64,000 nucleotides of DNA from a virus: IMG/VR virus record IMGVR_UViG_3300010354_000075, positions 3,306 to 67,305 of that record, one strand, 5' to 3'. This document shows positions 1 to 53,519 of this stretch, in pieces. Below the pieces are notes generated by a model that saw only the letters and a program-made list of their open reading frames with translations, did not search any database and was not told the origin of the DNA. The position numbers and the translations under genes are program-made. How positions within the stretch are numbered: the stretch's first letter is position 1; each line of letters begins with the position of its first letter.

Positions 1-14
1 TACTAGTTTTTAAA

Positions 15-1133
15 TTACTCATAATATTCTTTTAGCATCTCGTACAGTTCAGGGTTATAATCTTTCCAATGCTCATTTCTAACAGCATTTAGTCTACTAT
101 CCATTTCATTAAACTTAGCAAAATTACCTGGCATAGTAATATGTTCGTATACCACACCCCTAAAATCTTTTATTTCCTGATGTTCTAGTTTGTTTATTCT
201 CTGCATAATCTTGTCTTTAACATCGACAGGTAAATTACAAGGTCTAATCCAATTAGGACCATCTACCATAACATATTGAAAATGAACATTAGGATATTCT
301 TCCTTTACATGCTCTAGAAGTTTTTCTATATGATTTATGTTATAAATGCTAATAACAGAATGGACCATCACAACTTCAAAATTATTAGAATACCACCGTA
401 AATTTTTATCTACTTCGGTCCAATTACTTCCCTTACGTAAAAAATTATTTAAATTTCCGTAAGCATCAATACTACAGGAAATTTTTACCTGCTTACATCT
501 TCTAAATAATTTCATTAATTCAACATTAGGTCTCGTAGTTACATTTGTAGCAACGAAAATTGATAGTTGCGGCAAATGACATCGATTTAAAATAGAAATA
601 AATTTTTCTTGTTCTAGCATAGGCTCGCCGCCGATAAGTTTCAAGAACTCCAGCTTAGTCACATCTATTTTTGATAGAGGATCTACATTTTCTATTATAC
701 CTCGATTTATAGGAATTCCTAATTCTTTAGCATCAGGATACCAATTAGTGCTTAAATCAGGACCGCACATTCTACATCTGTTATTACAAACATTACTTAA
801 AGCTAAATCAATATGAACTAATTCTGATTTTTCAGGAATCTCAAATGATTTGCCTAATTTATTGTACATACCTTGAAGCATGTCCAAACGCATACTTTTA
901 CCTGAATTCTTTTCGTTTTGATAACACTGAACACATCCATCAACTGGTTTTCCTTCTGCTATGTCGCTTCTTATTCCTTGTAAAAAAGGATGATTTAATA
1001 CATCATCAGTTTTTAGATTAAATTCTTCAGGAGTACTTTCATGTCTAAAATAACAACAAGGATATACTCTGCCATTAGGTCTAATAGCTATGTGATACCA
1101 AGGCAAAGGACACAACACATCTTCTTTATTCAT
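15..1133 (-). CDS. Radical SAM protein with N-terminal SPASM/twitch-like Cys cluster
   Basis: CNNRCRMC (CxxxCxxC) and GGEP motifs; N-terminal CPLPW..YPCC..CVQC. Start moved to ATG 1133, which overlaps the end of the upstream gene. Confidence 0.9.
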   Translation of the reverse strand: MNKEDVLCPLPWYHIAIRPNGRVYPCCYFRHESTPEEFNLKTDDVLNHPFLQGIRSDIAEGKPVDGCVQCYQNEKNSGKSMRLDMLQGMYNKLGKSFEIPEKSELVHIDLALSNVCNNRCRMCGPDLSTNWYPDAKELGIPINRGIIENVDPLSKIDVTKLEFLKLIGGEPMLEQEKFISILNRCHLPQLSIFVATNVTTRPNVELMKLFRRCKQVKISCSIDAYGNLNNFLRKGSNWTEVDKNLRWYSNNFEVVMVHSVISIYNINHIEKLLEHVKEEYPNVHFQYVMVDGPNWIRPCNLPVDVKDKIMQRINKLEHQEIKDFRGVVYEHITMPGNFAKFNEMDSRLNAVRNEHWKDYNPELYEMLKEYYE

Positions 1134-1689
1134 TATACCACCCTTCATCTTGCATAGGATCTATACTAAGTTCATTAATATTAATATGTCTAGGTTGTGA
1201 TAAAACCCATTGAATATATTCTGCTGCTGCTTTGATATTCATTGTACGTCTAGAAGGATGTTTTAATTGATTATTACTCAAAGTACCAAAACTTACATAA
1301 CTTACTTTAGGGCCTTTATCCCATACACCTGCTATTCCTAAAGTGTTTGAATAATCTCTTAGTGCCTTCTTCTCAGCATTATATAACCAAGGCTTACCGT
1401 TTTTAACTCTATCTGTAGTACTACCAACATTTATAATATGAATCGAGTGATTAGCATTAACACAAGCTTTATATATAGAATCTAATAATACAGTTTGATT
1501 AAATTTCCATAAAGCACTAGAATTAATAAAGACATCATACTCAGTAATCATTTCTGCTAATTTATTTTGCGCTGATTGCAAGGTCAAATCAAACCCAGTA
1601 TATCTACTGGCAAAAAATGCATCTGGATAAAATTTGTACAATTCTGCTGCTAACCCAGAGTTCTTATTTCCTGTTATCAAAATTTTCAT
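1126..1689 (-). CDS. Short-chain dehydrogenase/reductase (Rossmann fold)
   Basis: KILITGxxxxGL glycine motif, DVFINSS, INVGS and catalytic YxxxK (YNAEK). Confidence 0.8.
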   Translation of the reverse strand: MKILITGNKNSGLAAELYKFYPDAFFASRYTGFDLTLQSAQNKLAEMITEYDVFINSSALWKFNQTVLLDSIYKACVNANHSIHIINVGSTTDRVKNGKPWLYNAEKKALRDYSNTLGIAGVWDKGPKVSYVSFGTLSNNQLKHPSRRTMNIKAAAEYIQWVLSQPRHININELSIDPMQDEGWYNE

Positions 1690-2035
1690 TTCTATCAATC
1701 TTATCCATTCTTACTAATTTAACTACATCCCTACCAGGCATTGTTTTTTCTTCTATCCCAATACCACAAGCACTTTGACATTTCTTAGGAGCCTTACCAT
1801 TATTAAAGTTATCTAAATTTAATATAGTTAACATAGTTCTTTTTATTGTTTCAAAATCATGAACTTTTAAATCATTCCAATCCTCAGGCAAGTTTTTAAA
1901 TCTTTTATCATCCCATGGATTCAATTCGTAATATCCATGATAAAAACAGCATGGGTAAACTTTAAGATTCACTGACACATCAAATTCGGCCCATTTATTC
2001 TTGTTGTAATCATAAGAGGAACATCGTACTTTCAT
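1664..2035 (-). CDS. Stand-alone SPASM/twitch Fe-S domain protein
   Basis: C..VYPCCF..WNDL..CQSACG matches the C-terminal domains of 9658..10722 (WPCCF..WNSL..CIRTC) and 10719..11891. Confidence 0.75.
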   Translation of the reverse strand: MKVRCSSYDYNKNKWAEFDVSVNLKVYPCCFYHGYYELNPWDDKRFKNLPEDWNDLKVHDFETIKRTMLTILNLDNFNNGKAPKKCQSACGIGIEEKTMPGRDVVKLVRMDKIDRNENFDNRK

Positions 2036-2715
2036 AAATTATTAATCCAAAAATCGTCAAGATGTATAATCTTATTAGTTTTTTCAAATCGTCTAACTAT
2101 TTTTTTTACTCTCTTTACTTCCTTTTCATGTATTCTATTAATACCGTGATAATTTGGTCGTAAATTAAATCTCAATGACAAGGGTATGTTGTTATCAATA
2201 GCTATGGTTATCACATCAGTTAACTCAAAAAGATTATGTTCAAATATTGTGTAATCCCAGTGAGCTTTTCCTACAGACGATAATAATAACATGTTTTTAA
2301 ATGCTAGTTCAGTATCTACATTTATTCTATACTTATTGTTTACTTCCTGTGTAAGACCATCTATACCAAATCTAACAATAACATTAGGGCCTTCATTTGT
2401 AAGATAATCAAAAAATTCAGTTCTGCGTAAACCGCCATTGGTGTAAACGCTTACTTCTTTAAAAATTTTAGATGCTACTTCTACAAAATCTTTTATTTTA
2501 GGGTGCATTAAAGGGTCGCCGAACTCTCCGCAAAAGTAACAAATCTTCTTTAAAAAATAAGACGAATTTCTTTCTATAATAGTTTTCCAATTATCAAAAT
2601 TCATATGTACAAGACTAAGGTTTTTTTCTAACTGTAAATAATTATCTGAATCAAATCTTTTACAAGTAGGACACTTAGCATTACAATAATTGGTTATATT
2701 AAAATCAATAATCAT
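2032..2715 (-). CDS. Radical SAM core domain lacking its SPASM domain
   Basis: CNAKCPTC, FCGEFGDP, TNGG, FGIDG; paralogous to the N-terminal part of 9658..10722 and 10719..11891. Confidence 0.85.
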   Translation of the reverse strand: MIIDFNITNYCNAKCPTCKRFDSDNYLQLEKNLSLVHMNFDNWKTIIERNSSYFLKKICYFCGEFGDPLMHPKIKDFVEVASKIFKEVSVYTNGGLRRTEFFDYLTNEGPNVIVRFGIDGLTQEVNNKYRINVDTELAFKNMLLLSSVGKAHWDYTIFEHNLFELTDVITIAIDNNIPLSLRFNLRPNYHGINRIHEKEVKRVKKIVRRFEKTNKIIHLDDFWINNL

Positions 2716-3905
2716 ACAATATTTTTAAGCACGGTGGTATTAAAATGATTAGAAATTACCTTAAAATAATTATCTTTGAATTTACTTTTTGGAGCACAAA
2801 GACCGCAGCCACAAGTATGTTTTGGACAAACTATAGTGGGCATCGTATTATTTTTTAAATTATACTCTAACTGTTCTAAAATCTTGTCACTTTCGCTTAA
2901 TTTACCAATAGGGCCGCGAGTTTGGCCGAACTGTGCTTGACAAGTTTGATGATGAAATACACTGTCTGTTTGTTGTTCTATGTGCATAAAAAACCAATTT
3001 ACACTACAATACCAGTCTTTAAATTCTCTTAAATCTACAAATTTACTTTTTTTACTTTCTCCCTGATTACTTAAACACATTGTTCTACTACCGCAACAAG
3101 GACGTCCTATAGTTAATCCTAATTTTTTTTGCGGTGTGGAATTATCTTCAGTAGCAGCACTAGTTCCAAAATCCACATTCTGTCTGACTTCTTCTAAACT
3201 AGGGTTATTAACCTTGTCAGTATTAGTTTTCCAATAGTCCTTCATCCAAACAAGCTGCTTTTCAGTATATTGATGCGCAAAATTACTGCGACTATCTGGC
3301 TCTTCACCTATAACACGGGGAACATACTTAATACCCTTGCTATCAAAATAAGCACACAGGTCCTGACACTCTTCGAAGTATCCGGCATGAAACATAACAT
3401 TTATGCTTATAGTGCAATTTCTGCTTGGCCCATACTTACTAAATTGCTCAATTCTTTCAACAACTTGTTTCTTAAGTTTTTCATCTGCTTCAGTATGATA
3501 ACTAATTGTTATATGATCCAGATGTTCCATTACGGCGTCAGCCATTTTACTACTCATAGCTCCATTGCTTGTTAATGCAAATCCAGCTCTCCATTTAGTT
3601 TGATATTTTTCTTGATATTCATTTTTTAAATATTGAATAAATGGAATAAAATTAGGATTCACTGTAGGTTCTCCTCCAGTAAAACTAATACTAGTTTCTT
3701 TAAAATATCTATGATTCATATACAAGTCTATATACTTGTATAAAAAATCTACATTACCTTTAAGTGTATCTAAACTAGCATGTGGACTAAAATTATCGTG
3801 CCTGTGACTTGGACAATAACTACAATCATAATTACATCTACGTCCTAAATCCCATGTTACTTGGAAAACATTACCATCTAATAAATCGACTGTGTCAAAA
3901 CTCAT
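2712..3905 (-). CDS. Radical SAM protein with Cys-rich C-terminal domain
   Basis: CNYDCSYC, FTGGEPT, TSNG, ISYH; C-terminal PCCG..C..C..C..CPKHTCGCGLC. Confidence 0.9.
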   Translation of the reverse strand: MSFDTVDLLDGNVFQVTWDLGRRCNYDCSYCPSHRHDNFSPHASLDTLKGNVDFLYKYIDLYMNHRYFKETSISFTGGEPTVNPNFIPFIQYLKNEYQEKYQTKWRAGFALTSNGAMSSKMADAVMEHLDHITISYHTEADEKLKKQVVERIEQFSKYGPSRNCTISINVMFHAGYFEECQDLCAYFDSKGIKYVPRVIGEEPDSRSNFAHQYTEKQLVWMKDYWKTNTDKVNNPSLEEVRQNVDFGTSAATEDNSTPQKKLGLTIGRPCCGSRTMCLSNQGESKKSKFVDLREFKDWYCSVNWFFMHIEQQTDSVFHHQTCQAQFGQTRGPIGKLSESDKILEQLEYNLKNNTMPTIVCPKHTCGCGLCAPKSKFKDNYFKVISNHFNTTVLKNIV

Positions 3906-4789
3906 AATTGTCTATCTTCTAAAAAATAAAATTTATTTTTAAACGCCCATGCTCTTTCTGAACAATGAAAACACTCTTTTAATTTATTACATCCGCCTTT
4001 AGCAACAGAACAACTTTGTGTCATATTTAAAAGATCTACAATTTTAAAATTGTAATACTGTGCTATTATCCAACTTTTTTCTATACGTTCAAATGGACTA
4101 ACTGAAATAAAATTTGGTAGATGTGGAGATCTATATATTGTAGGAACATGTTCATCTAAATTTTTAATTTCGTTTCTAAAAGCTGGCGGTCCTGCTATTT
4201 CATCAGTGTTTACAGGATTAGTAGTTGTTCCATCATATATAGCACTTAGATTATATTTTTTGCTTGCCCAATCTGTGAAATAATGAAAATATACAACATC
4301 GGCAGTAGCATTCGCAGATATTAGAAACTTAATTTGTTCTGAATTTACATCATATAGTTGAACATCTTTAACAGAAATTTGTTCAAATACTGGGGGTAAA
4401 AATCCTACTATAGAAGGTTGTACTATATCAGGAAAGCAAGTCTGTATATAATTAAGAATATCATGTCTAGCTGTTTCACTAAAATTATCTAAATCATAAA
4501 ATCTTATTACAGATATAGGAAAGATTTTAGTTTTTAAATTAAGTGTTTTAATAAATTTAGCTAGAAGATATAAAAGTAATGTACTATCGGTACCTCCACT
4601 GAAATTAATTCCTATAGATAAATGTCTATTGTCAAAATATATAGGAAGTCCATTAGCTATAAAATAATTAAAAAATTTTCCTTTTTCAATATTGTTGTTT
4701 ATCCAGTTTTGTAATTTTACAAAATAATGATCTGATGGAAAAGTATTGATATCATAATTATCAAACCCTATAGTACCTAATTTAGTCAT
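3902..4789 (-). CDS. QueC-like PP-loop ATP pyrophosphatase
   Basis: FSGGTDS PP-loop, PF..K..I motif, C-terminal Zn-type SC..C..CFHCxER. Confidence 0.75.
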   Translation of the reverse strand: MTKLGTIGFDNYDINTFPSDHYFVKLQNWINNNIEKGKFFNYFIANGLPIYFDNRHLSIGINFSGGTDSTLLLYLLAKFIKTLNLKTKIFPISVIRFYDLDNFSETARHDILNYIQTCFPDIVQPSIVGFLPPVFEQISVKDVQLYDVNSEQIKFLISANATADVVYFHYFTDWASKKYNLSAIYDGTTTNPVNTDEIAGPPAFRNEIKNLDEHVPTIYRSPHLPNFISVSPFERIEKSWIIAQYYNFKIVDLLNMTQSCSVAKGGCNKLKECFHCSERAWAFKNKFYFLEDRQL

Positions 4790-6085
4790 CGATAAAATCC
4801 ATAAATTTTGGTTCTACAGAAAAAATATTTTCTTGACGAATGCTATCTAATTGTTTTGTATATTTTACAAACTCATTCCAATATTGATCATAATAACTTT
4901 CGCTATTCATATAATTAATAACACCATTAACGATATCAGTAGCTTGGGAGATAATATCAGGATATTAACTTTTATCCATCCTAAAAAATCATAATATTGA
5001 TTTGTGATTTCTTTTTTGTAAGTGTCGGGTAATACCCTAACATTTAAGTGTTTAGGATGATGAGCAACATGATGAGTGATTATAGGACGCCTATTTGTAC
5101 TGTTAATTTTTTTAAACCCACTATCTTTCAATTTCCACTTCATAAAATCAATCATATGATTGACATTGTAAGCGGTTACAGTAAATGCTAACCACGCTAT
5201 AATATTACTAGGAAGATTGTCGACCTTATATAAGTTATCTAAAGTTTTCTCCCATTTAGCTGGAAATCTTTGATACTCTTGAATTTTACCCATTCCATCG
5301 ACACTAGCACCAATACGTACTTGTTTAAAACTTTCCCACAATTTGGTTACACGAGTAGGAAGGGTGCTCATATTAGTATTATACTCGATTATAATATTTT
5401 TAGCAACATCTTGTTCAATACATCTTTCCAAAAAATCATAATGACGTTCTATTAACATAGGCTCTCCGCCGGCAAAATAAACATGTTGAATATTATGCGC
5501 ATTTGATTCTAACTGTTGCCAAAAAGGTTCGTAATTAGGCCAGTCAAATTCTGTAGAGTAATAACCTTTATCATTTTTAAATATAGTTACTTCACCCGAA
5601 GTGTCTTTAAATTTATTAGATCCGGTTAAATTAATCCAATCATCATACCATGCGCTACTATCGGTAGGACCGCACATACGGCACTTCAAATTACAAAAAT
5701 TACCAAATCTTAAATCATAATAAATCACAGGTACATCAGAAATCGACCCATCCTCAGAAGTTTTAGATCTTGCTTCGTCTATGGTAAATTTCCACTGTTG
5801 ATTTTCATAAGTTCTACGACTAACAAGACCATTCGCTTCTTCTTGTTTACAACGTCCACATTCGTCACTCCATATGCCATTTAACATATTAAGACGAATT
5901 GATTTCATTATTTCAGCATTTCTACTCTCTTCTAACACATCCCGACCAGCATTATATGCCGCACCATCGACTTTTCTAATTACGCCCTGATTTTTAGTCA
6001 CGTTAGCTTGACAGCAAACACGTATATCGCCATTGGCTCTTACTGCTTGAAATATCCAAGGAATAGGACAGAAGGTATCAGACAT
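4782..6085 (-). pseudogene. Radical SAM protein with N-terminal SPASM/twitch cluster, frameshifted near 4965 (1-nt deletion or assembly error)
   Basis: CPIPW..VCC..CGRC, CNLKCRMC, FAGGEP. The called ORF stops at 4907, but the -1 frame from ~4964 gives YPDIISQ...YWNEFVKYTKQLDSIRQENIFSVEPKFMDFIDD* to 4782. This matches the paralog C-termini and overlaps the next start codon. Confidence 0.8.
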
Positions 6086-6935
6086 TTCTTAACTCATTAA
6101 CTATATTTTCAACAACACTTTCTGCCCACTCTCTTTCTTTACACCACCAACAGTGACCACATTTTGGCAATATATCAACCGTGTGCTCAACTGGATCATA
6201 TTCTTGTAGACTAGAAACTACTTCTTTAATTTTAGGATCATTAATATCACCTTCACAACTACGTGTGATATTATACAAATCAAGTTTTTCAAAAAGATGA
6301 TATTGTGCTAAAATATAAGATTTATCCACAAATCTAAAAGGATGACAAATAGTGTATCCTTCTTTTTGAATTATTAAATCCTTTAAAATTCCTTCACTAG
6401 CTGGTTTTTCTCTATTTTTCATTCCGCCTACCCAACTACTGCCTTCTGGATTAGCACTAGTAGCATTATACACTACATCTAATTTTTCTTTATGTATAAT
6501 ATAATTGTTAAAACTACCTACACATATTTGATCGCCACTACGGGGTCTACCGTCTTCATCCTGAGTAATTGGGCCTAGTACTCCCCATTCTAATTCTGGA
6601 GGAATAAAATTTGTATGTCTAACAAAATGTATACTAGGATAATAATCTTTAACAAATTTTTCATAAACATCTAATGCTATAGGACCCTGCCAAGGTCTAG
6701 TGTTGTAACATCTTACGTGACTTATCACATGAATTACACATCTTAATCTATTTCTGGTTATGATATTACAAAGTAAAGTTAAAAGACAACTGCTGTCTGC
6801 TCCTCCACTTAGATTAATTCCTATTTTTCTCCAACTAGGATTAAAAGGAATATCCAACCCATTAAACCTAAAAAGTTCTATACCACTGTCTGACTCTAAT
6901 TGCTCATATATAAGATTGTTATCCTTAAATTTCAT
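6078..6935 (-). CDS. QueC-like PP-loop ATP pyrophosphatase
   Basis: LSGGADS PP-loop, HPF..DK..I, RSCEG..CGHCWWCKER; paralog of 3902..4789. Confidence 0.8.
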   Translation of the reverse strand: MKFKDNNLIYEQLESDSGIELFRFNGLDIPFNPSWRKIGINLSGGADSSCLLTLLCNIITRNRLRCVIHVISHVRCYNTRPWQGPIALDVYEKFVKDYYPSIHFVRHTNFIPPELEWGVLGPITQDEDGRPRSGDQICVGSFNNYIIHKEKLDVVYNATSANPEGSSWVGGMKNREKPASEGILKDLIIQKEGYTICHPFRFVDKSYILAQYHLFEKLDLYNITRSCEGDINDPKIKEVVSSLQEYDPVEHTVDILPKCGHCWWCKEREWAESVVENIVNELRNV

Positions 6936-8269
6936 AGCATTTCCTTTCTTAGGATTTTATAATCATAAAATTTATAATTAACATAATGATCGTTAAAATT
7001 TTGTTGCCATAGTTCATCTGTTTTTCTTACATACACCAAAAAGGCTTCCCAATGCTTATATAAAGGTTTATGATTAATCACATAATCTTCAATTCCTTTT
7101 AATGCTCTATAAGCACTCTCGATGTCTTGAAAAATCTGTTTTCCCTTGCGCCAAGTCCTCATTTTTTGACTTTCTTCAAAATTATCTAAACGTTCTTGTT
7201 TTACTCTGTCAATTAATTCGTAAGTTTTTTTAATATCTTGAAGGACATAATCTTTATAATCAAACATTAATATAGCTGGATTTAAGTAGTCAGGTGTATA
7301 AACAATGGAACTATCTATCCAGTCAATATCCAAACTTAAGAAGCTGGCAAAAATATTTTCTAAATCCATCATCTGATACACACTTGTTGTACACACAACA
7401 TTTAAATCTACATTTTTTAATGTATTAGCCAATTTAAATCTTCTTATATTATCTTTCAAAACATCCCAGTCGCCTGTTCTAAAGTAACTGTATATATTTG
7501 TTCCAGCATCAATACTCATCATAATCGTAACATATCTAAATGGCTCTAACGATTTTGATAATTCTTCTGGATCAAATTTAGCGTTAAAATTAGTATGAAA
7601 ACTAATATGTAATTTATCAGCATGAGGATGCTTGGCTAGTGCTTTTAAACAAGGAATAAATTGTTTTTGATAAAGAACTTCGCCGCCGGTAAAATCAACT
7701 TTCTGAAGATTAGGAAAATTTTCATTTAAATCATCCACGATACTATGCATATCTTCAATACTCATATCTATACTGAGAGTATCATTAAATCCTGCTCTAT
7801 GCATAGTTTTTGTAAGTTGAATAAGTCTATGATTCCAATCATCTTTATCAGGTTCGTAGTGTTTTAATTTTGCCATCCACCCGCTACTGAATACTTCGCT
7901 ACAATGTAAACATGCCATATTACAAGCATTACTGAATCTAAATTCCACATGGTTAAGACCCTTAAAATCTATCATGCCTGATAAATCATCGAAATATGTT
8001 TCGTCGGCTGGATAATCCATACGCATACTGTGTCCAGCATTTGCGTCTTCTACATTTTTACAAAGATGGCATCCTGGACTCCATTTACCGGACATCATAT
8101 CTAATCTATGTTTTCTAAATCCCTCTGAGTTGATTATTTCAGAGGGTTTAATTACTTGTGTACCTTCCATAATATGGAGTTTATCACTTTGTTGTGGACA
8201 TGATGTAGCGAATCCATTTTTGTAATTAAGGCCACCTAACGTGTACCAACAAGCAATCTTCTTAGCCAT
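6932..8269 (-). CDS. Radical SAM protein with N-terminal SPASM/twitch-like cluster
   Basis: ACWY..SCP..CHLC, CNMACLHC, FTGGE, SIDA. Confidence 0.88.
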   Translation of the reverse strand: MAKKIACWYTLGGLNYKNGFATSCPQQSDKLHIMEGTQVIKPSEIINSEGFRKHRLDMMSGKWSPGCHLCKNVEDANAGHSMRMDYPADETYFDDLSGMIDFKGLNHVEFRFSNACNMACLHCSEVFSSGWMAKLKHYEPDKDDWNHRLIQLTKTMHRAGFNDTLSIDMSIEDMHSIVDDLNENFPNLQKVDFTGGEVLYQKQFIPCLKALAKHPHADKLHISFHTNFNAKFDPEELSKSLEPFRYVTIMMSIDAGTNIYSYFRTGDWDVLKDNIRRFKLANTLKNVDLNVVCTTSVYQMMDLENIFASFLSLDIDWIDSSIVYTPDYLNPAILMFDYKDYVLQDIKKTYELIDRVKQERLDNFEESQKMRTWRKGKQIFQDIESAYRALKGIEDYVINHKPLYKHWEAFLVYVRKTDELWQQNFNDHYVNYKFYDYKILRKEML

Positions 8270-9668: not shown

Positions 9669-10722
9669 AATTAATTTCGTTTTGATATGCTTTATTATAG
9701 GCGCAGGTTCTAATACATCTAACTAGATGTTTAGCATGAGCCGGATTCCAACTTTCAGAAAGTATACGGTCAAACCATGGGTGTTCTAAGACCTCATCAA
9801 TAGAATGACATTTTAAACTGTTCCATCCTTCTGAATACTCACTTAATTTTTCTACAATACTTTCTTTATTTTTAAACATACTATCCCATAAAAAACAGCA
9901 AGGCCACATTGTTTGATTGCTGGCTATAAAAATTTCTCCTTCATGAACTAACTTACAAGTAATTGAATCTAAAATCTGTTGTTGTTTATCAACTATAGGA
10001 ATCATAAACATTCCTTTATTATATGTTGAAATAAACTTATCTAAGTCTTTTACTAAATCTTTTTTACTATGTTCCTTAGTTCCAGTAGTAGTAATCACTA
10101 CTTGTTCTTTACTTTTATCTTTTTTTCTAATTTCTGCTATCCAATTATGATAGCTGTTTCTCATACCTGTTCTTGTAGCAAATTTAAATCCTAATCTCTC
10201 AGCATGTTGTTTAGCTGCAGACATCTCATGTTCATTATGATCAAATACAATATAAATCCAAGATGCTGAACCTTGGGCTTGAGAATAAGCTGTCATGTTT
10301 TTTTCAATTACGTGAAATAAAGTGTTAACACGATATATATGATTCGTCTCTTTATGTCCATCTACGCAAAAACTTACATCGACTAAATTAGTGTCTTTAC
10401 TTAATTTTCCTAATCTACTCCACCAACTAGTCGATAAAAGTCCTCCATTTGTACTAATCTGACAATATCCTTTATTACTCACGAGATATTCTATCATCTC
10501 GTAACATTCTTTGTTTGCTATTGGATCACCTAATACACCACAAAATTTAAACTCTTTTCCCTGAATATATTTCTGAGTAGGAAAAATTCTTTTTAAATCC
10601 TCTAGTCCAAAACTGTTAATTTCTAAAATGTCTGGATTCTGTGTTCGAGCACATCCTGGACAGGCAGCATTACAATTACTAGTAATTTCTAATTCTACTT
10701 TTTTAATACTATCTATATTCAT
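9658..10722 (-). CDS. Radical SAM protein with C-terminal SPASM/twitch domain
   Basis: CNAACPGC, FCGVLGDP, STNGG; C-terminal C..WPCC..CIRTC. Confidence 0.9.
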   Translation of the reverse strand: MNIDSIKKVELEITSNCNAACPGCARTQNPDILEINSFGLEDLKRIFPTQKYIQGKEFKFCGVLGDPIANKECYEMIEYLVSNKGYCQISTNGGLLSTSWWSRLGKLSKDTNLVDVSFCVDGHKETNHIYRVNTLFHVIEKNMTAYSQAQGSASWIYIVFDHNEHEMSAAKQHAERLGFKFATRTGMRNSYHNWIAEIRKKDKSKEQVVITTTGTKEHSKKDLVKDLDKFISTYNKGMFMIPIVDKQQQILDSITCKLVHEGEIFIASNQTMWPCCFLWDSMFKNKESIVEKLSEYSEGWNSLKCHSIDEVLEHPWFDRILSESWNPAHAKHLVRCIRTCAYNKAYQNEINYVN

Positions 10723-11891
10723 TTAAATTGATCACTAAAAGCATCATATTTAGCTCCGCACGTTTTAGCACAGACAGCTAATTTACCATCGGCACAACTA
10801 GGCAACTCCCACCTATTTGGTATAACTTCTGTAAAGTATTTTCCTTCGATTATATCTTCCAAGTTGTGTAATTTAGCATTTAAACTGTCTTTACCTACTT
10901 CATTAATTGCTTGCCAAATTTGTCCACCTAACGGTTTCCAGTACCAAACATACATTTGTCCTGCTGTCCAACAACAGGGCTGTACTATTCCTTCGGCGCT
11001 TATATATACAGACTTTTCTTCACTGACCTTACACTTTATTTCGACTGAGTCCCAATACTTTTCCATTTCTTTTTTCTTACTAGCGTCAAAAGTAAAAGTT
11101 TGTCTTCCTAATATTTTTTCAGCATCTTTTACTGTACTTGGTATAAATTTAACCTCGTGAATATTTTCACTAGCAATTTTACTAAGTTCTTGTAAACTGC
11201 TATTTCTATATTTTGAATTACGAGGAGACTGAAGTAATGTTGTAGTAATACCTTTACGATTAGCGGCTTGATGTAACTCTTTTGTTGTGCCGCTAACATT
11301 ACTGAAAAATCTAGCACTTTTTTTATACTGAAATTTCTCAAAACCCATTTTTTTACTTAGTTCTTCTGCTTGTTCAACTTGATGTTCATTATGAGCAAAA
11401 ACAATAAAATCCCAACGAGCATTGCCACCTGCTTGAATAAATGCTTGAGCATTTTCCATAATTTTTGACCAAACTGTATTTTGTCTGTATAAATGATTAG
11501 TGTCCTCTAACCCATCAATACTAAACACTACATAACTATTTTTTCCTAAAACTTTTGCTAAATTAGTCCACCAATCTGGTTTTTTAGCACTTCCATTTGT
11601 GTACATACTTAAATTCATTTTGGAATTGTTAATTCTAAAATATTCAAAAACTTCCAAAGTATCTTTTGCCGCAATAGGGTCTCCGTAATTACCGCACATG
11701 TACATACGTTTTAATTGAGAAATAAACTCTGGTTTAAAAATCTTTTTACAATCATCTAAACTTAGTTCTGTTCCTGGTAGTTGAGGGTTGTCCTCTCCTC
11801 CGTTAATGTTTCTAGCACACATAGGACAAGCAGCATTACAGCTATCTGTCATTTCTAGATGAACTGTTTGTATTTCATTATATCTATACAT
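10719..11891 (-). CDS. Radical SAM protein with C-terminal SPASM/twitch domain
   Basis: CNAACPMC, MCGNYGDP, TNGS, FSIDG; C-terminal C..QPCC..CAKTCG. Confidence 0.9.
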   Translation of the reverse strand: MYRYNEIQTVHLEMTDSCNAACPMCARNINGGEDNPQLPGTELSLDDCKKIFKPEFISQLKRMYMCGNYGDPIAAKDTLEVFEYFRINNSKMNLSMYTNGSAKKPDWWTNLAKVLGKNSYVVFSIDGLEDTNHLYRQNTVWSKIMENAQAFIQAGGNARWDFIVFAHNEHQVEQAEELSKKMGFEKFQYKKSARFFSNVSGTTKELHQAANRKGITTTLLQSPRNSKYRNSSLQELSKIASENIHEVKFIPSTVKDAEKILGRQTFTFDASKKKEMEKYWDSVEIKCKVSEEKSVYISAEGIVQPCCWTAGQMYVWYWKPLGGQIWQAINEVGKDSLNAKLHNLEDIIEGKYFTEVIPNRWELPSCADGKLAVCAKTCGAKYDAFSDQFK

Positions 11892-11905
11892 TAATGTTTT
11901 CCAAA

Positions 11906-12133
11906 TTAATTATCTATGACAAAGTTAATATCGATACCTGGACCTGCTTTACTAGGCAAATCACCGTATTGATCAATGTACCACTGAATTACTGCTTTAT
12001 ACCAGTTTTGACTATCATGATAAGCTTTTTGATTGAATTTATAAATGTTATCATTTGTAGCATCCATAGTAGCTACAGCTCTAGCACATTCTTTTTGTAA
12101 CGTTCGTAAATCAAACTGATCTAAGTCAATCAT
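11906..12133 (-). CDS. Small hypothetical protein (75 aa)
   Basis: ATGA overlap with the upstream stop; in-operon position; Trp/Tyr-rich. Confidence 0.7.
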   Translation of the reverse strand: MIDLDQFDLRTLQKECARAVATMDATNDNIYKFNQKAYHDSQNWYKAVIQWYIDQYGDLPSKAGPGIDINFVIDN

Positions 12134-12984
12134 GGATATCCTATAAGCATTACACGTTTATATCCTTTTAATTGTAGTTCTCCCTCAAATAAAATTTCTT
12201 CCATAGGATATTTTTTCTTCATGTGATCTATGCTATGAACGCAATTAACATGCTCCTCTACATCAAACAAATTATTACTTTGTATCACAACTAAAGGGTT
12301 AGTTTCAAAATTCTTAAATCTTATATCATCGTACCATTTTTGGTCCATGTGTTCAGCTGAAGTATTAATGATTAAATCAGGCATAAATGTTTCACTAAAA
12401 TGCTTTGCTTCTATGTTTTTAAAATTTTCAACATTTAGAACATATCCGGCTTTATGTAACACTAAATTGTTTATATCAGCACAGATAGCTTTTACTCTAT
12501 AATCTTCTATAAAATGTAAATTAAAAATATCGTCACTAATAAGACAGGCAACTTTGTCCATATCTACTATACGCACTTTTCCAAACTTTAAATCTCTAAA
12601 GTACTGTAATAATTGTCCATACCATCCTGCTAACAAAAGAACTTTTTTATGTTCTTTTTTTATCTTTCCTAATTCTTCTGCTAGCCAGATTTTACTTTGT
12701 ACTTGCCCTCTACTAAAAGCATCTTGTAAATGTTTTGCATTATGATCTTCTCTATAATACTTGTGGAATACAGTAAAAATGTTATTATGAGTAAATTTTC
12801 TTAACAGACTTACAAACTCCACTATATCTGCTTCATCTGTAGATTTTATCATAGGATTATTTGCGTATAATAATTTCAAGATGAAATCAGTATAATTACT
12901 ACTAGTTTCGTCTCCCTGAAATTTAAAAAATTCTTGTAATCCATGTAACCAAGATATAGTGCTCTTATCCAGTTCTTCCATCAT
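12130..12984 (-). CDS. Class I SAM-dependent methyltransferase-like protein
   Basis: VLLLAGWYG motif I, acidic VDMD after strand 2, ADIN, DLIINTSAEHM. Confidence 0.7.
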   Translation of the reverse strand: MMEELDKSTISWLHGLQEFFKFQGDETSSNYTDFILKLLYANNPMIKSTDEADIVEFVSLLRKFTHNNIFTVFHKYYREDHNAKHLQDAFSRGQVQSKIWLAEELGKIKKEHKKVLLLAGWYGQLLQYFRDLKFGKVRIVDMDKVACLISDDIFNLHFIEDYRVKAICADINNLVLHKAGYVLNVENFKNIEAKHFSETFMPDLIINTSAEHMDQKWYDDIRFKNFETNPLVVIQSNNLFDVEEHVNCVHSIDHMKKKYPMEEILFEGELQLKGYKRVMLIGYP

Positions 12985-13654
12985 ACATCCTTTCAAAATA
13001 TTGCTTCAACCACCCAAAATCATTTATTTTCGCTAGTTCAGTAAGATTACCTTGATTAAATTTACCAAACTCTTCTCCATGTCTAGCACCATCTAATGCA
13101 TATTGTCCAAATGGTCTGTCTATACCTTTGATTTTCCAAGCTAATAATCTTTCTTCTGTTTCATCTGTTTTCTGTCTATCAATGACTTTGCTTGACAATT
13201 TACAGCATTCTCTAAATGCACTTCTCCAAGTGCTATATGGATCTGTATTAAACGCAGTGATATTACTTACTTCCGGCATTGGTTTAAAATGTTTACTTAT
13301 ACTGGTAGTCATATCAGGCTTACTGGTATCCATATTAATAGTTGCTAATCTTGGCAACAGTTTTACTCCACCATATCCATATTCTAAATCGTTTACAGGA
13401 TTACGACTTCTCCAAACATGAACAAATTTTGTTTGATCTGTGGTATAACTAAAGTCAAAACTTTCTAAAATTTCAGCATCGCCGTCTACTACCCAAAACA
13501 TATTAGTAAAACATTTTCTAGCTGCTGCTATATGAGCATTATGTATGCCCCTTACTCTATGAATACGTTTTGCCCAATAAAATCTTTTCGACAAGTTCTC
13601 CCAATTCTTTTCAGCGTTAGGTTCTTTATAACTTATGAAAACAATATCATACAT
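12965..13654 (-). CDS. GT-A fold (GT2-like) glycosyltransferase
   Basis: N-terminal DIVFISY, FWVVDGD DxD motif; paralog of 13654..14562. Confidence 0.65.
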   Translation of the reverse strand: MYDIVFISYKEPNAEKNWENLSKRFYWAKRIHRVRGIHNAHIAAARKCFTNMFWVVDGDAEILESFDFSYTTDQTKFVHVWRSRNPVNDLEYGYGGVKLLPRLATINMDTSKPDMTTSISKHFKPMPEVSNITAFNTDPYSTWRSAFRECCKLSSKVIDRQKTDETEERLLAWKIKGIDRPFGQYALDGARHGEEFGKFNQGNLTELAKINDFGWLKQYFERMYDGRTG

Positions 13655-14562
13655 CAGGATACCACCAAATTATTTTTCATTCTCGGAGGATTTATGTATA
13701 CTGTTTTAAAAAATATACTTTGATTTGGTAAGAAAGGATGAGGGCACGGAATTTTTAATTGAGATTCTATTTCGATTCCTAAATTTGTTATATCTGTTTC
13801 TATAGTAATGTCAGACACAGTTTCTTCATACAGATTATTAAGATACTTAAAATCTCTGACATTTGTAAAATCCCAGTCTGTACAATTTGTTTTATAACAT
13901 CCTTGTCTTGCTCCTAGCATAGCATAAAATCCGTTAGGTACATCCGCTCCTATAGTCATCCATATAAGTAGTCTATGTAAATTTTTCCAATGTACCTGTC
14001 TATCAAAAGGTCTGTCCTTAGTAGGTTTAGATCCTTCTAACAAACTCATTTTTACACCTTCTCTAAATCCTGCTCGCCATGCTTGATGCGGGCTACCATT
14101 ATTATATACGTCACTCATACATCTGTCCATTTGTATATAATTAATGTCCCAACAAAAATCAACTTGTGTTTTAGCATTATCTGATTCAGCGTTTTCATGA
14201 GTTCGCATGTTTAATATTAAGTCTGTAGGCCAGCATTTAACTCCGCCATTACCGTAAATTAAACCATTAATAATATTTCTTGCTCCCCAACTTATTACAC
14301 AATTAGTGTTAGCATCATCATAGAATTCAATTTCTTGATTAATTAAATCAGGTCTAACAATATTATCACCATCTACAATAACCACTCGCTCAGTTTCTGC
14401 TAATCTAGCACAAGCTTTATGTGCGCTATCACTACCATCGACTCCATGAACTCTTTTAGCCCAAGGGATTTTAGTTAAAAGATCAGCATAATTTTGTTCC
14501 GCATTTGGTTCATCATAGCTTAAATAAATTACATCACAATCAGCAACTTTTATTTTATACAT
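13654..14562 (-). CDS. GT-A fold (GT2-like) glycosyltransferase
   Basis: DVIYLSYDEPNAE, VIVDGD DxD motif, YGNGGVK and WRAGFRE shared with its neighbour. Confidence 0.65.
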   Translation of the reverse strand: MYKIKVADCDVIYLSYDEPNAEQNYADLLTKIPWAKRVHGVDGSDSAHKACARLAETERVVIVDGDNIVRPDLINQEIEFYDDANTNCVISWGARNIINGLIYGNGGVKCWPTDLILNMRTHENAESDNAKTQVDFCWDINYIQMDRCMSDVYNNGSPHQAWRAGFREGVKMSLLEGSKPTKDRPFDRQVHWKNLHRLLIWMTIGADVPNGFYAMLGARQGCYKTNCTDWDFTNVRDFKYLNNLYEETVSDITIETDITNLGIEIESQLKIPCPHPFLPNQSIFFKTVYINPPRMKNNLVVS

Positions 14563-15055
14563 AAATTAATCCATATGACTTATACGATATATTTGCTAAA
14601 ACTAAAATTTCATTAACTTTATATTCTAAACTGTCTATAAAAGAAACAGTAAATACTTTTTTAGCAGGTATATCAATCTTTCTAATTAAAAAATTTAGAT
14701 TATCGTTTTTACAAATATAAAAGGTAAAATTAAATAATTCCTTCGAGTTTACTATTATATCCCAACTATTAGTTTTAAGATTATGAGTTATAGTAACTTG
14801 TTCTTTTCCGTTACTTTTATCTACAATAAAAAAATCTTTATATACTAAATTTGTTGGTTCTGTAGATAATTTAATTTGTTTTGTTCCGGAACTAAGACTA
14901 GAAATTTTAAATTTTGTAAAATCTTTAGATCCGTTAAGAAAATCTGTTATTTCAGATTCGTCTGTTTCAAGATAAGTACCTTCTGTTTTTTTTTCGTTAG
15001 TTACAGAAGTAATATTTCCATCGTTATCATAATATACAAAAAATTTAGATCCCAC
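14555..15055 (-). CDS. Hypothetical protein
   Basis: GTG start at 15055 behind a GAGG Shine-Dalgarno; overlaps both neighbours. Confidence 0.65.
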   Translation of the reverse strand: MGSKFFVYYDNDGNITSVTNEKKTEGTYLETDESEITDFLNGSKDFTKFKISSLSSGTKQIKLSTEPTNLVYKDFFIVDKSNGKEQVTITHNLKTNSWDIIVNSKELFNFTFYICKNDNLNFLIRKIDIPAKKVFTVSFIDSLEYKVNEILVLANISYKSYGLIYV

Positions 15056-15881
15056 AATTTTCCTCAACGATTTGAAATATATTTTGATTTAAAAAATTAT
15101 CTTCAGTATAATGAAAAACACCATGCTGTAAACAATTGTTAATCCTTAATTCTAATTTAGAATTAAGATGAACATTCACAGCAGATTGCCAAGAAGAAGG
15201 AACAGGATACCAATTTTGTAACGCAGGTTTCATATGAATAAAATTTAAAGGATTAGCACTGGCAAATTCGTACTCAGCATTCATAATTTTTGTAGCTATA
15301 GCTGACGAAACATCCATACTACAAAATTTTTGTGTATTGTTTAATGTATGTTCGTTATAAAAAAGTCTCCAGTTTTTAACTATTATCTCTAACCATTTAT
15401 AAAATTCAAACGCACGTCTAGTTTTTTTAAAAAAATGTAATCCAAAATAAACATTTGGCAAATCATTATCTATAAATGTTTTTCGATATGTAGTATCTTT
15501 TATTAAATTATTTTTGTAGTTAAACACCTTACTGGTCAATGCCACATTTTTAGTTTCCAAATGCTTCCACCAATGATCTGTCGATGATAAAACTAACATG
15601 TCTGTATCATACACGATAGTTTCGTCAAAGGGACTTATGTGTATAAGCTTCCATCGATTTTCAATTTTCCAATCACTATTAGCAGCATCGTCAGTCCATG
15701 GAATCGTTTCGACTTTATCAAAAGCTTTTAAATATTTTAACGGAACAACATCATTTGTTACTAAACATGTTTTATTAAATTTGTTAAATTTCTTAATAGT
15801 AAGCGCAGCTATATAAGCTTGAGTAACATAATCGACTCCAGAATTCTGAGCAAAAAATAAATGTCCGCGATTACTCATCAT
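15045..15881 (-). CDS. GT-A fold (GT8-like) glycosyltransferase
   Basis: SPFDETIVYDTD DxD motif, late FIHMK His motif; paralog of 15871..16707. Confidence 0.65.
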   Translation of the reverse strand: MMSNRGHLFFAQNSGVDYVTQAYIAALTIKKFNKFNKTCLVTNDVVPLKYLKAFDKVETIPWTDDAANSDWKIENRWKLIHISPFDETIVYDTDMLVLSSTDHWWKHLETKNVALTSKVFNYKNNLIKDTTYRKTFIDNDLPNVYFGLHFFKKTRRAFEFYKWLEIIVKNWRLFYNEHTLNNTQKFCSMDVSSAIATKIMNAEYEFASANPLNFIHMKPALQNWYPVPSSWQSAVNVHLNSKLELRINNCLQHGVFHYTEDNFLNQNIFQIVEENCGI

Positions 15882-16707
15882 ACGCCCTTAATAAACTAAA
15901 TTTATTCATAACATGTACATCTAAATTATCAATTTTTACTCCAGTAAATTCCCCTAGACAATTTTCCTTTTCAACTAAAAATGATAAAGAATTTTCTTTA
16001 ATTTTTAACAAAATGTCTTTATCAAGTGTATAATACATTTTTCCTACAATCTTTCCATCAAACAAGTTTATATCAGTTCCATTTAGAATATGAATAGCTA
16101 TACTAAAAGCGTAATCATTTCTAAATTTTGTATCTCCTATCTGATAAATCAATCTATAATAATCCCAATTATTTCTAATATGATCAACTAGATTAAAAAA
16201 TACTAAATTAGACTTACTCTTAGTAAAATAAAACACTGTAGCCCAATAAAAAGGAATAGAATACTGATTAATCTGAGTAAATTCAGAAATATTTCTCCAG
16301 CCTGCTAAATCAAATGAATCCTTAAAACATAAAAAATCATGATTAGTATCAAAAACATGAAGCAAAAAATCCGAATTTACTACGTAATCTACATCTAAAA
16401 CTAAAGTTTGGTCATAAGGACTTAAATCATAAGCAGTAGCTCTGTTTGAATTCTTCCATACATACCTTTCAGAAAAATTATGACCATCACTAAATTTTTT
16501 TGTCTGTAACGTTTCATCTTTGCTTTTTACAATTTTATCAAACAAATCTAAACTAGTTTTATAATTCTCATTCAGATATTCTTCACTGTCGGTAATGATA
16601 GTAACAGGAAGATTATAATAATATTTTAGACGTTCAGTTAACTTTACAGCTAACTTAACATAATCCATTTTTGAATTCATGGCGAATAATAATATGCCTT
16701 TAGTCAT
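15871..16707 (-). CDS. GT-A fold (GT8-like) glycosyltransferase
   Basis: SPYDQTLVLDVD DxD motif, RNDYAFS, VHVMNK. Confidence 0.65.
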   Translation of the reverse strand: MTKGILLFAMNSKMDYVKLAVKLTERLKYYYNLPVTIITDSEEYLNENYKTSLDLFDKIVKSKDETLQTKKFSDGHNFSERYVWKNSNRATAYDLSPYDQTLVLDVDYVVNSDFLLHVFDTNHDFLCFKDSFDLAGWRNISEFTQINQYSIPFYWATVFYFTKSKSNLVFFNLVDHIRNNWDYYRLIYQIGDTKFRNDYAFSIAIHILNGTDINLFDGKIVGKMYYTLDKDILLKIKENSLSFLVEKENCLGEFTGVKIDNLDVHVMNKFSLLRAYDE

Positions 16708-17054
16708 AAATCTAAAATATTTTTAATATTCCTATTAGTTTTAAGTTTTTCAAATTTAGAATAATAAGCATTATTTGCCTGAAAATGCTTATCTAGCAAA
16801 GACTCTAGAAATTTTTCTATATCCAAAATTAATATAGGTGTTTGATTAATATCTAATACAACCAACTGCTTTTCTTTGGTTAATTCTTTTAACGTTTTTA
16901 CATAGACGATAGTTTCATTATTTGCCTTAAAAATTCCTCCTGATTCAAAATACATTAAATTTTGATCATATTCTTCTTTAAGCACTCGCTTTTGATTAGC
17001 AATAGTAACCATCAAATTACTAATTTCGAAAGCTTTTTCAATATTTTGATCCAC
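16704..17054 (-). CDS. Hypothetical protein (116 aa), first gene of the tailoring cluster
   Basis: GTG start with GGAG Shine-Dalgarno; ATGA overlap with the next gene. Confidence 0.7.
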   Translation of the reverse strand: MDQNIEKAFEISNLMVTIANQKRVLKEEYDQNLMYFESGGIFKANNETIVYVKTLKELTKEKQLVVLDINQTPILILDIEKFLESLLDKHFQANNAYYSKFEKLKTNRNIKNILDL

Positions 17055-17066
17055 AATTACTCCACA

Positions 17067-17099
17067 ATTATAATCTTATACTATAATTATGCGAGTTTC
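17067..17099 (-). promoter_or_regulatory. Probable promoter of the tailoring cluster
   Basis: Minus strand reads GAAACTCGCA (variant of the AAANTACGCA element) followed by TAATTA and TATAAT in the 61-bp gap. Confidence 0.4.
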
Positions 17100-17115
17100 G
17101 TGTGATAAGTTTGAA

Positions 17116-47901: not shown

Positions 47902-47909
47902 TATTTATT
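47902..47909 (-). promoter_or_regulatory. Late promoter AATAAATA, 5 nt before the gp25 ATG
   Basis: T4 late consensus-like; no room for a Shine-Dalgarno downstream of the promoter. Confidence 0.55.
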
Positions 47910-53466: not shown

Positions 53467-53497
53467 TATTTAGTTGACAAAATAAAGTGCGTAGTTT
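53467..53497 (-). promoter_or_regulatory. Bipartite late promoter AAACTACGCAC-N14-TAAATA for the baseplate operon
   Basis: TATTTA 53467-53472 and GTGCGTAGTTT 53487-53497. Confidence 0.7.
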
Positions 53498-53502
53498 ACA
53501 AT
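53474..53502 (+). promoter_or_regulatory. Sigma70-type promoter of the gp55-gp47-gp46 operon
   Basis: TTGACA (53474-53479), 17-nt spacer, TACAAT (53497-53502); GAGGTG Shine-Dalgarno before ATG 53520. Confidence 0.85.
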
Positions 53503-53519
53503 TTAACAACGAGGTGCAA

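Follow-up and report, generated by a model that had tools for sequence, protein, structure and literature searches.

A hypervariable island of radical SAM and transferase genes beside the baseplate and fiber operon of a jumbo phage, probably for sugar tailoring

The DNA analyzed here, a stretch of 64,000 nucleotides (nt) that we call the window, consists of bases 3306 to 67305 of the 67,305-bp IMG/VR record IMGVR_UViG_3300010354_000075, to which CheckV assigns a completeness of 19%. At one end of it, at positions 15 to 17054 on the minus strand, lies a packed block of genes dominated by radical S-adenosylmethionine (SAM) enzymes. We found that this block is, as judged from sequence comparisons, the local form of a hypervariable island that occurs in a clade of jumbo phages, on no fewer than 80 IMG/VR contigs. 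It probably encodes a sugar- or glycan-tailoring system, and we propose, more tentatively, that it is a virus-encoded island for building and editing sugars at the end of the baseplate and fiber operon, with the virion as its target. The initial annotation of this DNA had pictured an assembly line for an unusual glycan, and that is still the best reading of the genes described below and of the nucleoside diphosphate (NDP)-sugar enzymes found inside the islands of relatives. The virus itself appears to be an uncultivated aquatic jumbo myophage of a clade related to PA5oct and RsoM2USA; because CheckV puts the 67,305-bp record at 19%, the full genome would be roughly 350 kb. Most of the stretch was found in only a single sequencing run, possibly that of the source sample.

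Gene content and synteny of the island

All sizeable open reading frames (ORFs) from position 15 to 53447 lie on the minus strand, and within this run the block at 15 to 17054 comprises 21 co-directional genes whose neighbors overlap by 1 to 35 nt or sit 14 nt apart. The initial annotation had described 20 co-directional, overlapping genes. The packing and the direction stood, and the count changed with the recovery of an overlooked 75-amino-acid (aa) ORF, sm (11906 to 12133), which overlaps the stop codon of the methyltransferase-fold gene M and fills the 239-nt apparent gap (11892 to 12129) between M and the radical SAM gene R8. A further radical SAM gene, R9 (390 aa, minus strand), starts at base 22 of the window and extends past its left edge, with positions 1 to 22 inside the window and the rest at contig positions 2155 to 3327. 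With R9, the block amounts to about 22 enzyme genes, 9 of them radical SAM. Beyond R9 on the same contig are two convergent genes, one for a 452-aa protein of unknown function and one a DegT-family aminotransferase-like ORF (E = 1.6e-17).

A search of IMG/VR with the radical SAM gene R6 returned 144 stretches, and the best 80 of the 144 (72 to 94% identical) were kept as related loci. Gene maps were drawn for 10 kb on either side of R6, with orthologue counts limited by contig ends and by the 10-kb flank; the threshold, as stated for the SDR-like (short-chain dehydrogenase/reductase-like) gene and R3, was at least 50% identity. R6 was present in all 80 loci, R8 in 78, a gene for a transferase with a GT-A-like fold in 67, sm in 65 (50 to 82% identical), and M in 63. 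R9 was found in 52 loci, a PP-loop gene in 49, R7 in 44, R3 in 37, the SDR-like gene and R5 in 29 each, a GT8-like gene in 28, R4 in 21, R1 in 19, and R2 in just 1. Each locus holds 2 to 12 radical-SAM-like ORFs (median, 8), and there are 65 distinct gene orders among the 80. In these maps a conserved frame, made up of the GT-A pair, M, sm, R8, R6, and R9, surrounds radical SAM and PP-loop genes that vary from locus to locus. The maps also bear out the expected link of the radical SAM genes to transferase genes, through the GT-A-like gene (67 of 80) and the methyltransferase-fold gene (63 of 80).

Part of this frame is physically joined in some relatives. In locus L031, the two GT-A-like proteins and M (A2, A1, and M) are directly joined as one polypeptide, and in five other loci (L036, L029, L043, L021, and L039) they are fused via a linker of about 300 aa, in some cases of low complexity, that precedes the methyltransferase domain. 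These fusion proteins are 848 to 1222 aa long and are good evidence that the three proteins work together.

The link to structural genes was seen in the window, in the 342-kb relative G001 (92% complete), and in the cultured jumbo phage RsoM2USA (MG752970.1). All three share the order baseplate wedge, giant protein, fiber-like protein, v, B2, B1, u, A2, the ORF in RsoM2USA being u-sized, and A1 is 45% identical in RsoM2USA. After A2, G001 has about 40 kb of extra genes, then the A1 fusion, M, R8, R6, further genes, R9, and a convergent thymidylate synthase; its island spans about 59 kb. Among 50,697 records of isolate phages, none had a homologue of R9, and R6 matched just two Vibrio phages, at 22% identity; a megablast of the 17-kb block against isolate phages gave no match. 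The thymidylate synthase gene convergent to R9 at the island end of G001 (L233, 32121 to 33020, minus strand) also occurs in G002 and G004; the site is occupied on the window's contig by the 452-aa ORF and the short DegT-like ORF.

Upstream of the block, at 17116 to 53447 on the minus strand, is a virion module that contains Ser/Thr/Asn-rich fiber-like proteins, tail fibers, a 5174-aa protein, and the baseplate wedge and hub, as identified by PHROGs, tblastn, and composition. The initial annotation had placed the block directly downstream of fiber and virion genes, and PHROGs indeed names tail fiber, tail collar, baseplate wedge, and baseplate hub proteins across 19017 to 53447, as well as virion structural proteins. 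Tail fiber and tail collar proteins are encoded at 22400 to 24532 and 25513 to 28401, the baseplate wedge at 43926 to 47405 (PHROGs E = 3e-296), and the baseplate hub/tail lysozyme at 47908 to 49590. By tblastn, the wedge shares 34.5 to 36.6% identity with its counterparts in the jumbo phages Atu_ph07, Phosso, SCTP-2, XaC1, and PA5oct. Fiber-like proteins are encoded at 17116 to 18081, 18090 to 19004, and 19017 to 20498. In the two proteins immediately upstream of the block, Ser, Thr, and Asn make up 33% of residues.

Two irregularities in the block could be explained. The 117-nt gap at 4790 to 4906 is the product of a frameshift in the gene read as 4907 to 6085 (R4). An extra T follows position 4961/4962 in independently assembled contigs of three runs (X1, X3, and X4), which shows that the frameshift is an assembly error. 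The true end of R4 is 4782, which makes it overlap the PP-loop gene PP1, and its close orthologues are all 432 to 452 aa long. The second irregularity concerns x3 (1664 to 2035), a 123-aa ORF that aligns with residues 262 to 311 of R7, in the Cys-rich C-terminal part of that protein (BLASTP E = 9e-5). R2 (2032 to 2715) encodes a radical SAM core of 227 aa, and R2 and x3 are therefore the two parts of a split gene, a core and a detached Cys-rich domain of an R7-type enzyme. The pieces meet in an ATGA overlap, and the junction is identical in an independent contig. They may work as subunits, or the gene may be decaying.

Several features of the window lie outside the island or concern it only as context. 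The 5174-aa ORF (28402 to 43926), between the tail fiber and baseplate wedge genes, has a counterpart of 2912 aa in G001 (24% identity over 1221 aa), and the equivalent position in RsoM2USA is taken by a 2541-aa virion protein. The coding strand flips near 53.4 kb, with plus-strand genes at 53487 to 57268; a gp47/gp46-type (SbcD/SbcC-like) recombination endonuclease pair is encoded on the plus strand, the gp46-like protein being 49.6% identical to that of PA5oct. The G+C content is 29 to 34% in the island (window positions 1 to 18000) and 32 to 40% in the remainder of the window, consistent with a flexible, exchangeable region. A scan of the window found no tRNA genes, and neither promoter-like sites (112 versus 103 ± 11 expected by chance) nor terminator-like sites (9 versus 6.2 ± 3.2) were enriched in it.

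Enzyme families of the island and their bacterial counterparts

The eight radical SAM enzymes of the initial annotation, each said to carry CxxxCxxC, held up. The CX3CX2C motif occurs once in each of the eight proteins encoded in the window, and seven of them exceed the PF04055 gathering cut-off of 29.5 bits, the exception being R7 (27.2 bits); all eight thus fall in the radical SAM superfamily, and R9, at the left edge, adds to the set. R1 (15 to 1148), R4 (4782 to 6085), R5 (6932 to 8269), and R6 (8262 to 9668), the last a conserved anchor of the island, also pass the 170-bit cut-off of NF033640 ("twitch domain-containing radical SAM protein"), with 244, 352, 204, and 422 bits, respectively. 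These four have an N-terminal twitch region and share the invariant N-terminal cysteines C12, C30, C93, and C96; R1 has a PF04055 score of 41.1 bits and a SPASM match at residues 13 to 60. The other four, R2 (PF04055, 42.1 bits), R3 (2712 to 3905; 42.6 bits), R7 (9658 to 10722), and R8 (10719 to 11891; 37.9 bits), score 25 to 50 bits and are not members of NF033640. Their extra cysteines are C-terminal, forming Cys-rich domains in R3, R7, and R8. The Cys pattern suggests a putative second (auxiliary) [4Fe-4S] cluster in the twitch/SPASM region.

R9, of which R3 is a distant paralogue, is the most conserved gene of the island, with a mean column identity of 70% across phages and Bdellovibrionota (alignment A7). 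Its relatives carry PF04055, and it has 4793 homologue clusters with generic names only; an Atlas look-up returned unnamed or generic clusters. Profile searches of the PDB with R9, R8, and the N-terminal-twitch family returned generic radical SAM cores only.

Two proteins carry the SGGxDS motif, as first reported, and had been called QueC-like ATPases. PP1 (3902 to 4789) has SGGTDS at residue 64 and a C-terminal Cys motif, and PP2 (6078 to 6935) has SGGADS at residue 43 and a C-terminal CxxC pair. With this motif near the N terminus and weak TilS-N matches, both belong to the PP-loop ATP pyrophosphatase superfamily, and the Atlas neighbors of PP2 are virus-only PP-loop/QueC-like clusters (score, 0.96 to 0.97). 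Assignment to QueC itself did not hold: PP1 scores 15.8 bits against the PF06508 cut-off of 22, in its C-terminal part only, and PP2 matches only ATP_bind_3 in Pfam (16.1 bits). NCBIfam scans of the window proteins found no match to the QueE, QueD, or FolE families. The SDR-like gene (1126 to 1698) encodes a protein of 187 to 190 aa, shorter than classical SDRs, with a Gly-rich N terminus (ITGNKNSG) and a YxxxK motif (YNAEK); it has no Pfam match, and its weak NCBIfam SDR matches (E = 1e-4) are confined to the C-terminal half.

The six genes at 12130 to 17054 had no match in Pfam, NCBIfam, or PHROGs except for one weak PHROG match. PDB sequence-profile searches with M and with the A family (A1 and A2) returned nothing at an E value of ≤1, and structure prediction was therefore used. 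The AF2 model of M (12130 to 12996; mean pLDDT, 87.6; Foldseek E = 3e-7) has a class I SAM-dependent methyltransferase fold, in agreement at the fold level with the earlier call of a methyltransferase. In the VIA comparison it gave Z scores of 16.5 to BioC (root mean square deviation [rmsd], 2.5; 161 aligned residues), 16.0 to NodS, and 14.8 to RebM, of which NodS is a chito-oligosaccharide N-methyltransferase and RebM a sugar O-methyltransferase. The SAM loop reads AGWYG. Spermidine synthases match M too, and methyl transfer by M is putative.

The initial annotation had also named four glycosyltransferases with DxD motifs. The motif is present in all four, and they resemble two transferase types, GT-A-like and GT8-like, through a weak profile match in one pair and a fold shared with nucleotidyltransferases in the other. 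A1 (12965 to 13654; AF2 model pLDDT, 92) has a GT-A-like nucleotide-diphospho-sugar transferase fold, and A2 (13654 to 14562) is a 34% identical paralogue; in the A family D59 of the DxD motif is invariant and D57 nearly so. Foldseek matched the A1 model to WrtF, PcManGT, and the PBCV-1 capsid glycosyltransferase A64R (2p72, E = 3.9e-4), with E values of 1e-4 to 4e-4, and in VIA residues 1 to 135 gave a Z score of 11.2 to B4GALNT1 (rmsd, 2.8; 134 aligned residues). Fused A homologues show weak Pfam GT2 matches (E = 8e-4 to 7e-3). B1 (15045 to 15881) and its paralogue B2 (15871 to 16707) have no Pfam match; the profile of their family (33 sequences), in which D92 and D94 are invariant, matches glycogenin over residues 5 to 102 (E = 1.4e-4).

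Three small genes complete the block. u (14555 to 15067; 170 aa) belongs to no known family and is poorly conserved, and v (16704 to 17054; 116 aa), likewise of no known family, travels with B2 and B1. sm is conserved end to end (mean column identity, 76%) and is found in phages only, being absent from the Bdellovibrionota loci described next.

Part of the frame also occurs in bacteria. A scan of species-representative genomes with the N-terminal-twitch alignment yielded 75 loci, and in 17 of these, all from metagenome-assembled genomes (MAGs) of Bdellovibrionota, R6 (58 to 63% identical), R8 (43 to 50%), and R9 (56 to 67%) occurred together, including on a 2.9-Mb chromosome and a 936-kb contig. 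M is present in 12 of the 17 and a GT-A-like gene in 9; B1, B2, u, and v were found in none of the 75. The bacterial core genes lie on both strands. GT2 glycosyltransferases make up 8 of 120 neighbor families, and further neighbors include carbamoyltransferase, B12-radical-SAM, amine-oxidase, and QueC-like genes (Pfam tallies, here and below, are of the 25 most frequent of 148 families for bacterial neighbors, of 43 for phage accessory ORFs, and of 39 for G001). Five Bdellovibrionota genomes (G006 to G010; L160, L168, L187, L191, and L219) each hold 7 to 16 NF033640 genes over the cut-off, largely in tandem, with eight in a row at 792 to 803 kb in G009; none was found in 14 control genomes.

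All 20 bacterial rows fall into a single clade of the R9 tree (support, 99). Two phage rows are its sister group (96), and the branching within the clade tracks bacterial families. The outgroup branch of the R3-rooted tree has a length of 10, so the direction of transfer between phages and Bdellovibrionota is not readable from it. A separate group of MAG contigs (L153, L154, L172, L177, and L220, possibly also L155 and L178 to L180) carries a co-directional, phage-type island together with the phage-only sm, at 76% up to 81% identity. Their MAGs are assigned to Arcticimaribacter, Neisseriaceae, Rickettsiales, Gammaproteobacteria, and Micavibrio, and the first five contigs are probably misbinned jumbo-phage DNA.

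Possible products and acceptors

The main reason for reading the radical SAM genes as sugar-tailoring is the set of sugar-pathway genes that accompanies them in the islands. Of the 39 ORFs scanned in the G001 island, nine are radical SAM genes, and SPASM is present in seven of the nine. Two ORFs encode UDP-glucose/GDP-mannose dehydrogenases and one an NDP-sugar epimerase/dehydratase, recognized by the Epimerase, GDP_Man_Dehyd, RmlD, and Polysacc_synt_2 profiles. The methyltransferases include an O-methyltransferase of the TylF type and an NDP-hexose C-methyltransferase (Methyltransf_14/13). Aminotransferases of the DegT and class I/II families, a mannose-6-phosphate isomerase cupin, and a cytidylyltransferase are also encoded, and a carbamoyltransferase gene stands immediately before the A1 fusion. 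For the accessory ORFs of the 80 loci, representatives of 148 of 161 clusters and two genes of the window's own contig were scanned (150 in all). The families listed include FkbM methyltransferase (5), TauD dioxygenase (4), Asp/Asn hydroxylase (3), carbamoyltransferase (2), phosphomannomutase (1), and a CMP-sugar-type cytidylyltransferase (CTP_transf_3; 1), with UDP-glucose dehydrogenase and DegT also among them. Such families are the toolkit of deoxy-, amino-, and uronic-sugar pathways.

Genes for a lipid-carrier-dependent polysaccharide pathway were not detected. Profiles for Bac_transf (PF02397), Glycos_transf_4 (PF00953), and the Wzx flippase (PF01943) had no match in five long relatives, which include a 92% complete genome (against only about 19% for that of the window itself), and were positive in 9, 12, and 13 of 14 control genomes, respectively. 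The lack of a priming phosphoglycosyl transferase or flippase argues for a cytoplasmic acceptor and not for a lipid-linked, exported polymer.

The gene families, the synteny, the fusions, the co-occurrence of NDP-sugar genes, and the absence of lipid-carrier and flippase genes from the five long relatives were computed directly. From these we infer the chemical steps and the acceptor as follows; the late expression supposed in the initial annotation would be a further inference. Soluble enzymes would take nucleotide sugars from the host pool, and in the larger islands phage dehydrogenases, dehydratases, aminotransferases, and nucleotidyltransferases would supply them. The GT8-like and GT-A-like pairs would attach and extend sugars on a cytoplasmic acceptor, for which the Ser/Thr/Asn-rich fiber-like proteins encoded just upstream are the favored candidates, because the block is welded to the fiber operon across very distant relatives, because no export genes were found, and because giant viruses and mycobacteriophages offer precedents. 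M, which would be bound to the GT-A pair, may methylate the product or the donor. The radical SAM enzymes would perform C-H chemistry on the sugars (oxidation, epimerization, deoxygenation, or C-C/C-methyl formation), with R8, R6, and R9 providing conserved radical steps and the other six differing between phages. The SDR-like protein may handle keto intermediates, and the PP-loop ATPases may activate a carboxyl or acetamido group by adenylation, in preparation for amidation. As the variable middle, with its radical SAM and PP-loop genes, turns over, each lineage would acquire its own glycan.

Several observations weigh against this scheme. R6, R8, and R9 are not near any solved or characterized radical SAM enzyme (best PDB profile E = 7e-5 to 7e-4). 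Peptides are the more frequent substrates of SPASM/twitch radical SAM enzymes. In the window itself no gene for nucleotide-sugar synthesis is present, the neighboring DegT-like ORF aside. The GT8-like call for B1 and B2 depends on the glycogenin match (E = 1.4e-4) over about 100 residues, and the A1 fold also matches nucleotidyltransferases, with Z scores of 11.0 for IspD and 9.8 for MobA versus 11.2 for the best glycosyltransferase. The core of the island occurs in Bdellovibrionota without B1, B2, u, and v, so its product is not inherently a virion decoration. In addition, the authors of a pelagimyophage study interpreted comparable GT8 and lipopolysaccharide (LPS) genes, in a hypervariable cluster that also contains radical SAM genes, as modifying the host O-chain (PMC7029224).

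The last point suits an alternative in which the host envelope would be the target of this glycan chemistry, remodeling of the O-antigen or capsule serving to block superinfection or the re-adsorption of progeny to lysed cells. GT8 and deoxy- and amino-sugar genes are typical of O-antigen loci, and in bacteria the core has GT2 genes as neighbors. We nevertheless consider this target unlikely, since neither a priming transferase nor a flippase turned up in the five long relatives, all enzymes of the block look soluble, and the block is welded to the structural operon and not to early genes.

A protein or peptide substrate is very unlikely. The radical SAM enzymes would in that case modify proteins or peptides (the fibers, the 5174-aa protein, or a small precursor) by cross-linking, epimerization, or methylation, in the manner of ribosomally synthesized and posttranslationally modified peptides (RiPPs), and sugars would be added afterwards, as in glycocins. 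In NCBIfam, the radical SAM genes do show weak, partial matches, most of them to peptide maturases (such as PapB, SkfB, AlbA, and HxsC), the A1 fold matches the S-glycosyltransferases ThuS (Z = 10.1) and SunS (Z = 9.4), and Asp/Asn hydroxylases recur in the islands. The maturase matches all fall far below the family cut-offs, however, and enzymes of nucleotide-sugar metabolism abound in the islands. Nothing resembling a precursor gene turned up: sm, the one small ORF that is conserved, shows conservation from end to end and lacks a variable core (no search was made for RRE domains).

A diffusible product is also highly improbable. The island would then make a small molecule, for instance a metabolite of aminoglycoside-like, nucleoside-like, or other glycosylated type, with an effect on the host or on competitors. 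Twitch radical SAM, carbamoyltransferase, TylF-type and C-methyltransferase, DegT, and PP-loop enzymes are all present in the islands and are commonly employed in the biosynthesis of aminoglycoside and deoxysugar antibiotics, and a core common to phages and predatory bacteria would fit such a product. The families listed include no scaffold-forming enzyme, resistance gene, or exporter, however, and a location inside the virion operon would be left unexplained.

DNA hypermodification, in which modified bases would receive sugars from the transferases and a deazapurine or other base adduct would be the work of the radical SAM and PP-loop enzymes, is extremely unlikely. DNA modification by glycosyltransferases and carbamoyltransferases of phages is known, and the PP-loop proteins resemble QueC at the superfamily level, but none of the five long relatives has a TGT/DpdA homologue (controls, 14 of 14), which argues against deazapurine modification, QueE, QueD, and FolE matches are lacking in the window, the G001 thymidylate-synthase homologue (342 bits) keeps a dUMP-type PFNI motif, and the core is chromosomal in Bdellovibrionota. 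A Tet/JBP search in the five relatives found nothing, but its control was equally silent, which makes it uninformative.

Relation to known systems and implications

Virus-encoded glycosylation machinery is established in giant viruses, as in PBCV-1 A64R and the fibril sugar clusters of Mimivirus, and Freeman and colleagues reportedly described virion glycosylation in mycobacteriophages in 2023. The system proposed here would resemble these in combining autonomous, lineage-specific sugar synthesis with cytoplasmic transfer onto virion proteins. To our knowledge, neither the giant-virus nor the mycobacteriophage systems use radical SAM enzymes, whereas such enzymes dominate this island (9 of 22 genes). 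BtrN and its relatives are twitch-domain radical SAM enzymes of sugars and cyclitols. Four genes of the island resemble twitch enzymes in passing NF033640 and in having four invariant N-terminal cysteines besides CX3CX2C; unlike in BtrN-type enzymes, the twitch-like motif of NF033640 is N-terminal, and BtrN was not among the PDB profile matches. Judging by the names returned in our searches, no NF033640 member has been characterized.

Accumulations of radical SAM genes in myophages are not new, and the initial annotation's description of the cluster as undescribed holds only in part: publications of 2010, 2017, and 2020 had already noted radical-SAM cassettes in hypervariable islands of phages. 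Campylobacter phages CP220 and CPt10 have 11 and 12 radical SAM genes (PMC2853527), and a 183-kb T4-like marine genome has 12 (PMC5332604). These cases resemble the island in an unusual concentration of radical SAM genes in a myophage, some of it in the form of an exchangeable module. By their descriptions, and in the parts available to us, both papers differ in discussing low-oxygen or Fe-S metabolism with no link to glycan genes. Zaragoza-Solas et al. (2020) described in pelagimyophages and cyanomyophages a hypervariable "host recognition cluster" with GT8, LPS genes, and radical SAM cassettes (PMC7029224). Like the island, it is large, non-syntenic, placed in the structural region, and adjacent to tail fibers; unlike it, it belongs to roughly 150-kb T4-like phages with SAR11 hosts, and the portions of that paper that we could consult describe no conserved frame, fusions, or bacterial counterpart. 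None of the three papers, to the same extent, assigns a function to the phage radical SAM genes. Literature searches likewise returned no paper on the frame, the fusions, or the Bdellovibrionota counterpart, the supplementary tables of PMC5332604 (Table S1E) and PMC7029224, which could overlap, lying outside their scope.

A minimal version of the module is present in RsoM2USA, in the order fiber-like protein, v, B2, B1, u-sized ORF, A2, one N-terminal-twitch radical SAM gene, A1, and an M-like gene. It lies downstream of the baseplate wedge and of the virion-confirmed giant protein, and the products of the upstream genes ORF361 and ORF356 have been detected in virions. Unlike the island, this region has a single radical SAM gene, no R6, R8, R9, PP-loop, or SDR gene, and annotations that are all hypothetical. 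Set beside these systems, the island looks like an extreme form of a virus-encoded hypervariable glycan island, built on uncharacterized enzyme families.

A broader and doubtful extension of the sugar-tailoring reading is that arrays of N-terminal-twitch radical SAM genes are a previously unrecognized glycan-editing system, each paralogue making a different C-H edit. Through it, a widespread clade of aquatic jumbo phages would dress its fibers and the predatory Bdellovibrionota their own surface, both of them docking onto other bacteria, and cassette turnover would produce lineage-specific coats.

If the sugar-tailoring reading is right, the island would be the largest concentration of radical SAM enzymes seen in any sugar pathway, and it would open at least three uncharacterized enzyme families (R6, R8, and R9) with thousands of environmental members. 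The core shared with Bdellovibrionota would offer an independent, culturable route to the chemistry, and it raises the question of donor and recipient. It would also mean that tailed phages, like giant viruses, can carry autonomous, fast-evolving glycosylation, with a bearing on host range, on the evasion of defenses and grazers, and on the diversification of abundant aquatic jumbo phages.

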